Shown here piece by piece: positions 59,768-63,965 of a stretch of 64,000 nt of DNA. The notes under the pieces are model-generated. The model was given only the letters and a program-made list of their open reading frames with translations. It ran no database searches and was not told the DNA's origin. The stretch spans positions 8,642-72,641 of the forward strand of contig CAYSQA010000002.1 of assembly GCA_964433225.1 (NCBI GenBank), read 5' to 3'. Every line of letters starts with the position of its first letter. The stretch's first letter is position 1. Source of the stretch: an uncultured Pseudomonadales bacterium. GTDB taxonomy: Bacteria; Patescibacteriota; Microgenomatia; UBA1400; PJMF01. The translations under genes and the position numbers were made by a program.

Positions 59768-59868
59768 TTTGGCATAGGTTATCCTTTCCTATTATTATGA
59801 ATATATACTCATAATATAACTATTGAGTTGATTTGTCAAACATGATTTTTTCCACTTGCATAATTTGC

Positions 59869-59898
59869 AATACATATTCATAATATCGAATATGTATT
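59869..59898. promoter_or_regulatory. Perfect 11-8-11 inverted repeat AATACATATTC-N8-GAATATGTATT overlapping the ArsR-family gene start (putative autoregulatory operator)
   Basis: The arms are exact reverse complements. The second arm contains the ATG at 59892. A likely extended -10 TGCATAAT lies at 59856-59863 with TTGTCA upstream. Confidence 0.55.
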
Positions 59899-60374
59899 CT
59901 GAAGTATTTGCATTCCATGCCCAATTATTAAAAGCTTTGGCTCATCCCAAGCGTTTAGAAATTATTCATCTGATTAGAGACCAAGAGTTGTCAGTCAGTG
60001 ATATTCACCAAATGCTTGATTTACCACAGGCCAACATTAGCCAACATCTGATGTTGTTGCGTGATACTGGCATTGTTAAAACTCGTCGTGATGGTAAACA
60101 GATCTTTTATTCCTTGGCTGATAAAAAGTTCATTCAAGCCAGCGATTTAATGCGAGAGATTACTATTCAGCAATTAGTCGAAAGTGGTCAATCTACCCAG
60201 GAAGCAATGATGAAAATCAATGACTTAGTGCCTTTAGTTCATGATCCTGTTTGTCAGATGAGAGTTTCTCCCAAAACGGCTGGTTTTAGTTGTGATCATG
60301 ATCATCAAACTTATTATTTTTGTGCCAGTGGTTGTATGAAGTTATTTCAAAAGGATCCAGCTAAGTATGTCTAA
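59892..60374 (+). CDS. ArsR/SmtB-family metalloregulator with C-terminal TRASH/YHS metal-binding domain
   Basis: Ars[21 protein letters not shown]...[17 protein letters not shown]-terminal [10 protein letters not shown]...[20 protein letters not shown]. The start at MYSEVFAF is preferred over the track start at 59856. Confidence 0.8.
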
Positions 60375-62583
60375 GCAAACCATATCTTTTCATGTTTCTG
60401 GGATGCATTGTGCTAGTTGTGCTAGTAACACCACTAGAAAGCTAACTAAGACTAAAGGGGTGATTGAAGCTAATGTTAATTATGCTAATGAGCAGGCGAC
60501 TGTAGTGTTTGATGATAAACAAGCTGCGACAACCGATTTAGTTGCAGCCGTTAATTCTTTGGGCTACGTGGCACATTTGGAATTAGATGAAGATATTCAA
60601 GAGCAAGAGCGAGCTAAAGAGTTAAAGTTGATGAAAAATAAGTTGCTAGTAGGCGGGGTATTCTCTACTGTTTTGCTTTCTGGGATGTTGCCCAATCTAC
60701 CTGCTATTTTTTATAACCCTTGGTTCCAATGGTTGCTAGCTACCCCAGTTCAATTTTGGGCTGGTAGTAGATTTTACCAAGGAGCTTGGTCTAGTTTAAA
60801 AAATAAAACTACTAATATGGATACTTTAGTGGTACTAGGCACTTCAGTGGCTTATTTTTATTCAGTAATTGTGACTCTTTGGGGCGAATGGTTTATGAGT
60901 CATGGGCTTGATACTCATGTTTATTTTGAGGCAGCGGCTGCCATTATTACTTTTATTTTATTGGGTAAATTTCTGGAAATTAGAGCTAAAGCCAAAACTT
61001 CAGCAGCAATTAAAGAGTTACTTAATTTACAGGCAAAAACTGCTTGGTTAAAGAAAAAAAATCAATGGGTGGAAGTACCAATTGATCAAGTGCAAATTGG
61101 TGATGTGTTATTAGTTAAGCCAGGTCAAAAAGTTCCGGTTGATGGGGTGATTATCAAAGGCGAAACATCGTTAGATGAAAGTATGGTTACTGGAGAAAGT
61201 TTGCCTGTTACGAAAACGGTTAAGGATGAAGTAGTAGGCGCTACAATCAACCAATCAGGTAGTATTGAAATCAAGGCAACCAAAGTGGGCAATGAAACCA
61301 TGTTGGCTAGTATTATTCGTTTAGTCAAAGAAGCTCAAGGTTCTAGACCACAAATTCAGGCTTTAGTTGACAAAATTTCTTCTTATTTTGTGCCTACAGT
61401 GATTATTTTAGCAATTTTGACTTTTGTAGGGTGGCTGATCTTTGGTCCAGATCCAAGGTTATTATTTGCTTTGGTGAGCATGATTAATGTGTTAATTATT
61501 GCTTGTCCATGTGCTTTGGGTTTAGCAACACCGACTTCATTAATGGTGGGGATTGGTAAAGGAGCAAAATTGGGAGTTTTAATTAAAGATGCTCAGGCTT
61601 TAGAAGTAGCTAATAAGGTTAAGACAGTTGTATTTGATAAAACCGGCACCTTAACAGAAGGTAAACCTCGTGTTCAGCAAGCTGATTTTATGACAACTAA
61701 TCAGCAACAAGTTTTGGCAGTGATTAAAAAAGTTGAGGAATTATCTCATCATCCATTAGCTACGGCCTTGACTGAGTATGCAGACCAACTACTCAAAGCA
61801 AAAGTTAAGCTTAGTGAAGTGACTGATTTTAAAGATATTGGTGGTAAAGGAGTGATTGCTCAAGTTGATGGTAAGCAAGTGGCTGTGGGTAATGAAAAAT
61901 TATTGACAGAGTTGAAAGTTAGCTTGACTGTTGCTGAGCAAGAAAAAGTGGATTCATTAAAAAATAATGGCCAGACTTTAGTGCTGGTGGTGATAGCTAA
62001 AAAACTAGTAGCAATGTTGGGTATTGCTGATAAAGAAAAAGTTAATTCTGTTACAGTAATTGATTCATTAAAAGAGGAAAATATTAGAACCGTGATGTTA
62101 ACCGGTGATAACCAAACAACTGCCAAAATTATTGCTGATAAATTGGGCATAGATGAAGTGGTGGCTGAAGTTTTACCAAAAGACAAGGAAAGAGTGGTGC
62201 GACAATTAAGAAAAGATTTTGGAGTGGTAGCAATGGTTGGTGATGGTATTAATGATGCTCCGGCACTAGCTGCGGCTGATGTGGGGATTGCAATGGGTGG
62301 AGGCACCGATGTGGCGATTGAGTCAGCTGGAGTAACTTTGTTACGAAGTGATATCGGTTTAGTACCAACCGCCATCAAACTTTCCAAAGCGACGATGAGA
62401 AATATCAGCCAAAACCTGTTTTGGGCTTTTGGTTACAATGTGTTGTTAATTCCAGTGGCGATGGGAGTATTGTATTGGCCTTTTGGCGTGTTATTGAATC
62501 CAATGATGGCTGGGGCAGCCATGGCCTTTTCTAGTGTCAGTGTGGTATTGAATGCTTTAAGGTTAAAAAACATTAAATTATAA
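60367..62583 (+). CDS. copA: Copper-exporting P1B-1-type ATPase CopA
   Basis: N-terminal [16 protein letters not shown] (IACPCALG), DKTGTLT and [10 protein letters not shown]. It overlaps the ArsR gene by 8 nt. Confidence 0.9.
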
Positions 62584-62596
62584 TAAGGAGAGAATT

Positions 62597-63712
62597 ATGG
62601 ATTTATTAGTTATTTTTCTAACAGGTTTAACCACAGGAGGGTTATCTTGTTTAGCAATGCAGGGTGGTTTATTAGCTAGTGTAGTTGCTAACCAAAAAGA
62701 ACAAGAACGTGATGAGATTGTTGATGATGAAGTTAGAGAACAATCCAAGAAAAAAGAAAAATATTTAAAGTCTTTACAGAAAAATAATTTTTCTTTGCAA
62801 TCTTTTGACCAATTAGACTGGTTACCTGTGTTGATGTTTTTATTGTCCAAGTTAGTTGCTCATACAATTTTGGGGTTTTTACTAGGTTGGCTTGGTTCTG
62901 CCATGACTTTAAGCTTGGGCATGAGATTAGTTTTTCAAGTTTTCACTGCTGTTTTTATGTTTGCTACAGCTATGAATTTATTGGATATTCATCCTATTTT
63001 TCGTCATTTAGCTTTTCAGCCTCCCAAGTTTTTACAAAGATTAATCAGAGGAACAAGTAAAAGTCAGGCTTTATTTGCTCCGGCGATGTTAGGTTTCATG
63101 ACGATTTTTATTCCCTGTGGAGTAACTCAAGCTATGGAAGTATTGGCGATTAATTCTGGTAATCCCTTGGTTGGAGCAGTGATTATGTTTACTTTCATTT
63201 TGGGCACTTCTCCATTGTTTGCTATTTTGGGCGTGGCTACTGCGAAACTTAGTGAAGGTTGGTATCAAAAATTTACTAAGTTTGCAGCAGCTGTCTTGAT
63301 TGGGATGGCTGTTTACAGTGTTAACGGAGTTTTATTGGTGATTGATTCACCGCTCACCATTAATAAAATTATTCAACCAATCACTTACTTTTTTTCAGCA
63401 GATAGATTTGATCAAGCTGGTGGAAACAGTGTTGGTGTAAAAAATGGTGTTCAACAAATAAAAATAGATGTTTTGAGTCGGGGTTATCAACCCAACTATA
63501 TTAAAGTGAAAAGTGGTGTGCCTGTAGAAATGACCCTGCAAAGTAACAATACTTATTCCTGTGCTTTGGCTTTTGTTTTTAGGGAGTTTGGTATTAGCAC
63601 CTATTTAAAATCTACCGATACGCAAAGTTTCACTTTTACCCCAACCAAAAAAGGTAAGTTTACTTTTTCTTGTTCAATGGGAATGTACACAGGTATTATG
63701 GAGGTAATTTAA
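62597..63712 (+). CDS. Polytopic membrane protein fused to C-terminal cupredoxin-like domain (putative copper-handling permease)
   Basis: About 6 TM segments with Cys in TM1 (GGLSCLAMQGG), then a beta-rich C-terminal domain YQPNYIKVKSGVPVEMTL...FSCSMGMYTGIMEV that resembles cupredoxin-like copper-resistance domains. Confidence 0.5.
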   Translation: MDLLVIFLTGLTTGGLSCLAMQGGLLASVVANQKEQERDEIVDDEVREQSKKKEKYLKSLQKNNFSLQSFDQLDWLPVLMFLLSKLVAHTILGFLLGWLGSAMTLSLGMRLVFQVFTAVFMFATAMNLLDIHPIFRHLAFQPPKFLQRLIRGTSKSQALFAPAMLGFMTIFIPCGVTQAMEVLAINSGNPLVGAVIMFTFILGTSPLFAILGVATAKLSEGWYQKFTKFAAAVLIGMAVYSVNGVLLVIDSPLTINKIIQPITYFFSADRFDQAGGNSVGVKNGVQQIKIDVLSRGYQPNYIKVKSGVPVEMTLQSNNTYSCALAFVFREFGISTYLKSTDTQSFTFTPTKKGKFTFSCSMGMYTGIMEVI

Positions 63713-63713
63713 A

Positions 63714-63965
63714 ATGTTAAATTTTTTTAAAAAAAATAAAACTCAAACTGGTAAAGTAGTTACTTTAAAGATTGATGGCATGCATTGTACAAGTTGTAGT
63801 ATGAGCATTGATGGTGAACTTGAAGATTTAGCTGGAGTAAATAGTGCCACTACTAGTTATTCAAAATCAGAGACTAAAGTGGAATATGATCCAGAAAAAG
63901 TTAATTTGGAGAAAATTAAAACCACGATTAAGGCTTTGGGTTATGGAGTAAAAGTAGAAGAATAA
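63714..63965 (+). CDS. copZ: CopZ-like heavy-metal-associated (HMA) copper chaperone
   Basis: GMHCTSCSMSI MxCxxC motif and a ferredoxin-like fold of the expected length after a short N-terminal extension. Confidence 0.75.
   Translation: MLNFFKKNKTQTGKVVTLKIDGMHCTSCSMSIDGELEDLAGVNSATTSYSKSETKVEYDPEKVNLEKIKTTIKALGYGVKVEE

Follow-up and report, generated by a model that had tools for sequence, protein, structure and literature searches.

The stretch of DNA analysed here, 64,000 nucleotides (nt) of contig CAYSQA010000002.1 from an uncultured member of the Patescibacteriota (hereafter the window), carries near its end four genes in the same orientation that encode an ArsR/SmtB-type regulator with a C-terminal TRASH/YHS domain, a CopA-type copper ATPase, a membrane protein with a cupredoxin domain, and a CopZ-like metallochaperone. 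A perfect inverted repeat lies across the start codon of the regulator gene. For the reasons given below, it is likely that these genes form a self-regulated copper-efflux operon, common in Patescibacteria, in which the ArsR-TRASH protein would act as a repressor on this repeat and would be released from it by Cu(I). The features of the locus, in window coordinates, are the following.

59856-59861, plus strand: predicted -35, TTGCAT, which starts 36 nt before the A of the ATG, in the same register as the TTGACA of relatives
59869-59898, no strand: putative operator, a perfect 11-8-11 inverted repeat with the core ATATTC-N8-GAATAT at 59874-59893 and the extended consensus A(C/T)ATATTC-N8-GAATATGTA
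59879-59886, plus strand: predicted -10 within the operator spacer, either CATAAT (59879-59884, 17 nt after TTGCAT) or TAATAT (59881-59886)
59892-60374, plus strand: regulator gene, 160 amino acids, with an ArsR/SmtB winged helix (residues 1-100), a linker, and a YHS/TRASH domain (residues 114-160) with C121-x22-C144-x3-C148
60367-62583, plus strand: CopA, a P1B-1 Cu(I)/Ag(I) ATPase with a single HMA domain at its N-terminus, whose start overlaps the regulator stop by 8 nt
62597-63712, plus strand: membrane protein, a Pfam DsbD_2 (CcdA-like) transmembrane module fused to a C-terminal CupA-like cupredoxin (Cupredoxin_1)
63714-63965, plus strand: CopZ-like HMA metallochaperone (GMHCTSC; Pfam HMA, 59 bits)

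The preliminary description of this DNA had reported an exact inverted repeat with the regulator ATG in its right arm. A pattern search of the window recovered this repeat at 59869-59898 as AATACATATTC-ATAATATC-GAATATGTATT, with fully complementary arms of 11 nt and a spacer of 8 nt, and the ATG at 59892-59894 indeed opens the regulator frame (MYSEVF...). Nested within the repeat is ATTC-ATAATATC-GAAT (59876-59891), which was found by a scan of the window and is kept in relatives. Shuffles of the window would yield this exact pattern 0.01 times. For perfect inverted repeats in general (arms of 11 nt or more, spacer of 0-12 nt) the expectation is 0.58 per shuffled window, against about 8 distinct ones observed, most of which resemble terminators. 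With 0.58 expected by chance, the perfection of the repeat is only mildly unusual and constitutes weak evidence, so that the case rests on the comparison with other species. Beyond the regulator site, no second operator was found in the window when it was scanned for the full site with up to 3 mismatches, for the 6-8-6 core with up to 2 mismatches, and for ATTC-N8-GAAT; the remaining matches of these scans lie inside coding sequence and are at chance level.

The comparison comprised 80 loci from different species genomes, with a regulator identity of 52-96%, aligned on the start codon. ATATTC-N8-GAATAT is present directly upstream of the regulator in 77 of the 80 loci, and in 67 of these 77 the core stands at exactly -18 from the start codon, being displaced by 2-15 nt in the others. 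Flanking positions outside the anchored hexamers are also kept, namely A-2 (73/77), G+20, T+21, A+22, and a C at the last spacer position, and the operator arms are conserved as sequence, not merely as pairing. The operator is also present in extra copies. At L037 such a copy follows TTGACA-17-TATATT, ahead of a DUF1573 gene, and at L046 the right arm of another holds the ATG of an unrelated 319-amino-acid gene that precedes the regulator. Because its sequence and register are conserved and extra copies occur at other promoters, the repeat behaves as a protein-binding operator. The view that the palindrome is a chance feature of AT-rich intergenic DNA can point to the 0.58 perfect repeats of such size expected per shuffled window, but has a negligible probability, since the same sequence recurs in the same register in 67 of the 77 species loci; such conservation across species excludes chance. 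Judging from the sequence, it is very probably to this perfect repeat that the operon's own repressor binds, and about 75 other uncultured Patescibacteria species have the same site in the same place. This reading is in line with the preliminary description, which had taken the repeat for an autoregulatory operator of the ArsR-type regulator, a proposal now strongly supported by the shared register and by the match to ATTC-N8-GAAT.

The regulator itself scored 50.3 bits against the Pfam family HTH_5 (PF01022; cut-off 22), 93.1 bits against the ArsR/SmtB metalloregulator model NF033788 (cut-off 55), and 42.4 bits against YHS (PF04945; cut-off 30.3), the latter over residues 116-160. An AlphaFold2 model (predicted local distance difference test score of 85.9) has an ArsR fold with helices at residues 2-17, 19-28, 35-42, 46-58 and 79-97 and strands at residues 62-67 and 70-75, so that the predicted structure displays the alpha1-alpha5 helices and the beta hairpin wing of the ArsR/SmtB family. 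Foldseek matched this model to SmtB, HlyU, CadC, SqrR, BigR and CzrA, with TM-scores on the target of 0.7-0.8. The TTG at 59856 was considered as an alternative start (172 amino acids) and rejected, as homologues measure 159-161 amino acids with an invariant Met1-Tyr2; because Met1 is invariant among close homologues, the ATG at 59892, which yields 160 amino acids, is taken as the start. The regulator has matches in more than 1,100 clusters formed at 90% identity, and about 40 full-length representatives are present in a 50%-identity library. The 120 best listed matches all have the same two domains, nearly all are 159-161 amino acids long, and their source names point to Patescibacteria. Database annotation of proteins of this type is by domain only.

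Two groups of residues stand out in the alignments. Invariant in the family down to 32% identity are Q46 and S50 of the recognition helix, and D118, C121, M123, C144 and C148 of the C-terminal domain; Q51 does not vary among close homologues, and its conservation in the wider set is at least 90%. The arrangement C121-x22-C144-x3-C148 is unchanged in 38 close and 35 distant family members. The C-terminal TRASH/YHS domain that the preliminary description had recognised is thus confirmed by the PF04945 score and by cysteines that fit the pattern C-x19-22-C-x3-C. The cysteine of the 'CDHDH' stretch, which had been listed as part of this domain, is not conserved and is confined to close relatives, the invariant triad being C121, C144 and C148. 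According to the translation and the alignment, residues 1-120 contain no cysteine, and residues 79-113, which include helix alpha5, contain neither histidine nor cysteine. The classical alpha3/alpha3N and alpha5 metal sites of ArsR proteins are therefore absent, and the Cys-free ArsR core and His-free alpha5 agree with the earlier suggestion that the TRASH/YHS domain would stand in place of these sites.

Searched against PDB and NCBIfam, the DNA-binding domain matched BigR, PagR, HlyU and SqrR best. It has been shown that SqrR and YgaV bind ATTC-N8-GAAT, and in the SqrR-DNA structure a symmetric site of 22 bp is occupied by one dimer, whose recognition-helix residues Q61 and Q66 contact bases (PMC9774250; bioRxiv 10.64898/2026.05.15.721447). 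Since the site in the window contains ATTC-N8-GAAT and the corresponding residues Q46, S50 and Q51 vary little or not at all in the family, binding of this repeat by the regulator is independently supported. The likeness to SqrR, BigR and YgaV, which are the nearest relatives of this domain to have been characterised, extends to the winged-helix fold, the operator core, the base-contacting Gln/Ser/Gln set of the recognition helix, and the overlap of the operator with the polymerase site of the regulator's own operon. Unlike these proteins, the regulator is missing both sensing cysteines, His26 being aligned with the first cysteine of BigR, and it possesses an extra 60-residue linker plus the TRASH/YHS domain; moreover, the genes of this operon export copper, whereas theirs detoxify sulfide. 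The regulator reaches 79.5 bits against the BigR model NF040642, where the cut-off is 155, and this score and the histidine in place of BigR's first sensing cysteine place it outside the persulfide-sensor group.

In the preliminary description, TGCATAAT (59857-59864) had been read as an extended -10, with the repeat just downstream of the promoter. Neither part of this description could be maintained. The sequence TGCATAAT is without the spacer base of the canonical TGnTATAAT, and relatives carry TTGACA, the -35, at the same position, for which reasons it was rejected as an extended -10; the repeat does not follow the promoter but brackets the -10 and the +1. Of the two promoter classes among the relatives, the one to which the window belongs comprises 52 loci with the left arm ACATATTC, and 31 of these 52 have a perfect TTGACA located 17-18 nt before the spacer TAAWAT. 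There is a tendency at the 24 loci with ATATATTC for the TTGACA to be displaced upstream by 6-7 nt, with 17 nt between it and a TATATT in the left arm. In both classes the operator overlaps the -10, and the spacer consensus of the relatives, TAAWATTC, keeps T1, A2 and T6 of the -10 hexamer. In the window, CATAAT (59879-59884) is separated from the A of the ATG by 7 nt, and depending on which -10 is chosen this distance is 5-7 nt. Because the spacer -10 lies so close to the ATG, the transcript is predicted to begin at 59892, the A of the start codon, which would make the messenger RNA leaderless. The window sequence shows no Shine-Dalgarno motif before the regulator start, unlike the membrane-protein gene (a strong AAGGAG) and copZ (GGAGG), and this fits a leaderless messenger RNA.

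Folded as RNA, the operator stretch forms a stem of 11 bp that includes the AUG (-12 kcal/mol, z = -2.5), which would suit a 5' leader hairpin that hides the start codon and controls translation. We consider such a role of the repeat very improbable. The arms are conserved as sequence and not merely as pairing, hence they show no covariation, and the conserved -35 and -10 put the left arm upstream of the predicted start, so that it would not be transcribed. Furthermore, other promoters have this DNA site too, at a constant spacing from TTGACA, and the site equals a known protein-binding box.

Taking operator, promoter and protein together, we propose the following mechanism. The DNA-binding domain would derive from the neighbourhood of the SqrR/BigR/YgaV group, having lost the sensing cysteines of that group and gained a TRASH/YHS domain with three invariant cysteines. 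A dimer would occupy ACATATTC-N8-GAATATGT, placing one recognition helix in each ATTC/GAAT half-site, and the symmetry, size and conservation of the site would suit a homodimer. The arms of the operator would bracket the spacer -10, and transcription would start within the right arm, at the A of the start codon; with the arms in these positions, the bound repressor would exclude RNA polymerase. Rising Cu(I), possibly handed over by the operon's own CopZ, would be captured by the cysteine triad of the TRASH domain, and the DNA affinity of the Cu(I)-loaded repressor would drop, allowing transcription of the genes for the regulator, CopA, the DsbD_2/CupA-like membrane protein, and CopZ. Repressor made from its own operon would then reset the switch.

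The genes that follow the regulator point to Cu(I) as the signal. CopA scores 631 bits against TIGR01511 (cut-off 397) and has a CPC motif at residue 380, in the membrane, and the Cu(I)-pump motifs N-x6-YN-x4-P and M-x2-SS-x5-N can be read in its translation, as is characteristic of a P1B-1 ATPase. The cupredoxin domain of the membrane protein matches the CopA N-terminal domain 4F2F (E = 3.6e-12) and Streptococcus pneumoniae CupA 2MRY/4F2E (E = 6.4e-12), and it keeps the CupA-type ligands, a cysteine ('sCa') and C-x-M-x-M ('fsCsMgM'). For the CopZ-like protein the best named NCBIfam match is the CopZ model NF033795, with 64 bits, which is below its cut-off of 91. The order CopA, membrane-cupredoxin and CopZ behind the regulator, as originally described, is thus substantiated by Pfam, NCBIfam and PDB matches, and among the relatives the order regulator-CopA-DsbD_2/cupredoxin-CopZ is kept in about 55 of the 80 loci. 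The DsbD_2 module of the membrane protein contains a cysteine in the first transmembrane helix and a FIPCG motif, and its fusion to the cupredoxin is kept in the operon of most relatives. Published work has tied YHS/TRASH domains experimentally to copper. That Cu(I) is the effector is inferred from these published links, from the signatures of a Cu(I) pump in CopA, and from the gene order shared by about 55 of the 80 loci.

In about a dozen species (L010, L038, L048, L050, L057, L067, L070, L076, L077, L037 at 1440-2010 and L046 at 3020-4000 among them), the regulator heads another operon, with genes for a membrane-anchored DUF1573 protein, an unannotated protein of about 310 amino acids, a rhodanese-DUF1573 protein, and a CcdA-like protein with a FAPCC motif. 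Several of these alternative operons also carry CopA a few kilobases (kb) downstream. Their composition suggests that one regulon connects copper with the extracytoplasmic chemistry of sulfur and thiols.

The nearest functional parallel comes from Archaea. The regulators CopR, CopT and VNG1179C are built on an Lrp/AsnC-type domain and assemble into DNA-wrapping octamers. Their binding site, TTNNCAWWWTGNNAA, lies upstream of the B recognition element (BRE)/TATA box, and they activate transcription or have a dual role; Halobacterium VNG1179C has been described as a Cu-dependent activator, and Pyrococcus furiosus CopR as a dual repressor/activator with a TRASH sensor. They share with the regulator of the window an N-terminal DNA-binding domain followed by a C-terminal TRASH sensor, as well as adjoining genes for a CopA ATPase and a small metallochaperone. 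The differences are the ArsR/SmtB scaffold, the dimer-sized palindrome over the -10 and +1, and the bacterial host, and no Lrp/AsnC family appeared among the Pfam and NCBIfam matches of the regulator. The regulator is a bacterial, ArsR-scaffold counterpart of the archaeal Lrp-TRASH protein CopR.

Several points weigh against a Cu(I)-relieved repressor acting on a leaderless promoter. Actual binding, the sign of the regulation, the leaderless start, and the effector have all been deduced from sequence. The -35 of the window is weak, as TTGCAT matches the consensus at 3 of 6 positions. When about 650 kb of related DNA were scanned with a strict pattern, a single further gene showed this leaderless promoter geometry, which leaves leaderless expression without independent support in these organisms. 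TRASH-type cysteine triads can hold structural zinc. Since the archaeal TRASH regulators activate or act dually, the presence of a TRASH domain does not by itself predict repression. Finally, the signal may be broader than copper, because some regulators of the family precede DUF1573, rhodanese and CcdA-like genes and not CopA.

These points lead to two other explanations in which the regulator still binds the repeat. It could function as a copper-dependent activator or dual regulator, as its archaeal counterparts do and as would suit a promoter whose weak -35 could call for help; HlyU, a close structural match, has also been called an activator. This seems improbable to us. In both promoter classes the -10 and the predicted +1 are covered by the site, as is typical of repression; a perfect TTGACA together with a good -10 makes an activator unnecessary in most relatives; and SqrR, BigR and YgaV repress from the same type of box in a similar position. 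Alternatively, the triad might sense persulfide, thiol oxidation or another thiophilic metal, or the domain might be a structural zinc module or a docking site for CopZ. The kinship of the DNA-binding domain with persulfide sensors, the thiol-disulfide genes in some of the operons headed by family members, and the structural zinc fingers among the relatives of TRASH all speak for this, yet we regard it as unlikely. In about 55 of the 80 loci, the regulator gene is followed by those for a CPC-type Cu(I) ATPase and then for Cu(I) proteins resembling CupA and CopZ, and, as mentioned, CopA is found a few kb downstream in several alternative operons; in addition, the experimental links of YHS/TRASH domains are with copper, and the cysteine pair of SqrR and BigR is absent. 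A repressor that is relieved by Cu(I) thus continues to be the explanation that we prefer.

When this repressor is set beside well-known metal sensors, it resembles SmtB, CzrA, CadC, NmtR and CmtR in family and fold, and also in the proposed control of its own metal-efflux operon through an inverted repeat at the promoter. Classical ArsR/SmtB sensors take their metal ligands from the core helices or from short tails (alpha3N, alpha5 and variants), whereas the candidate ligands of this protein sit in a separate, appended domain. Bacterial copper sensing is usually credited to CueR, CsoR or CopY, and the proposed physiological role of the regulator, Cu(I)-dependent control of copA and copZ, is the same as theirs. 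In the CopY system, the repressor receives its Cu(I) from CopZ. The fold of the regulator is unrelated to these families, none of which was found among its Pfam and NCBIfam matches, and the operator differs from the CopY box, TACAnnTGTA. We found no paper on an ArsR protein with a YHS or TRASH fusion, although the coverage of the literature was incomplete and this absence is no proof.

The operon is also found outside the Patescibacteria. The complete genome of a candidate division TM6 bacterium (L021; CP011212.1; Dependentiae) has the full regulator-CopA-membrane protein-CopZ operon with the operator in register, which suggests horizontal transfer. We lean, by a narrow balance, towards the wider proposal that Patescibacteria and at least one Dependentiae genome use a hitherto uncharacterised class of copper sensor, in which a SqrR/BigR-like ArsR repressor that has lost its persulfide-sensing cysteines would sense Cu(I) via an appended TRASH domain and control its own, leaderless operon from a site enclosing both the -10 and the start codon.

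If true, this would be an ArsR-scaffold copper sensor with a separate TRASH metal site, and a very large group of uncultured bacteria would have it as their main copper switch. It would add a new type of sensory site to the ArsR family, with a separate domain in place of core ligands, it would represent an independent bacterial invention of the archaeal helix-turn-helix-TRASH design, and it would define a small regulon that joins copper export to extracytoplasmic thiol-disulfide proteins. It would also be a clean case of a repressor family changing its signal, with the ATTC-N8-GAAT recognition kept from the persulfide sensors and the sensing side swapped by domain fusion. The operator, the promoter and the protein are small and sharply defined, so that the hypothesis can be tested in vitro without culturing the host, and the operator consensus can be used to map the regulon in metagenome-assembled genomes.

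A second palindrome lies upstream of the operon at 59793-59816, TATTATGAATAT|ATACTCATAATA, of which the closest relative (L001, at about 3900-3925) has a perfect version, ATTATGAATATATATTCATAAT. It overlaps the -10 of a strong minus-strand promoter, that of the divergent DUF5320-like and DUF134 genes, composed of TTGACA (59839-59834), 17 nt, and TATTAT (59816-59811). The palindrome was rejected as a second site for the regulator, as it contains the same hexamers in an everted and spacerless arrangement (GAATAT-ATATTC) with no half-site at N8. It probably belongs to another protein, for which it may serve as operator; a candidate is the DUF134 protein encoded downstream. The gene for this protein (59345-59650, minus strand) is directly preceded by a 35-amino-acid open reading frame, MPNRDGTGPNGKGPRTGRKMGNCKPK... 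(59668-59775, minus strand), which has a good Shine-Dalgarno motif, resembles DUF5320, and falls below the 40-amino-acid limit of the list of open reading frames. This pair of genes is divergent from the cop operon.

The window had also been described as containing two copper systems, and at the level of annotation this is correct, with a locus for a CPH-type ATPase on the minus strand in addition to the operon with the CPC-type CopA. The other locus is the following.

2830-9397, minus strand: first copper locus, encoding a CPH-type (CopB-like) ATPase with an N-terminal HMBD, a multicopper oxidase, and BlaI-like, BlaR1-like, DsbA-like and DsbD-like proteins

The genes for the ATPase, the multicopper oxidase, and the BlaI-like and BlaR1-like proteins occupy 4487-9397 of this locus. 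Its BlaI-like repressor is without the cysteine tail of CopY, and its BlaR1-like M56 protease ends in a Cys-rich tail, GGVCSEGTGCQTTGCSG. A Met/Gly-rich open reading frame of 196 amino acids (9417-10007, minus strand) adjoins the locus. The G+C content at 2830-10007 is 0.39-0.43, versus about 0.33-0.37 elsewhere, and the raised value at the first copper locus may reflect acquisition by transfer.

Other perfect inverted repeats of the window with arms of at least 11 nt are located at 51518-51546, 51900-51921, 3601-3629, 35794-35825, 26129-26162, 14984-15011 and 20082-20112. Several of them have G+C-rich stems that resemble terminators, and the one at 51900 is a 22-bp perfect palindrome, ATTTGTCATTTAAATGACAAAT. 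At 56492-57703 (minus strand) the window encodes leucine-rich repeats followed by a protein kinase domain, a combination that is unusual for a bacterium with a small genome.

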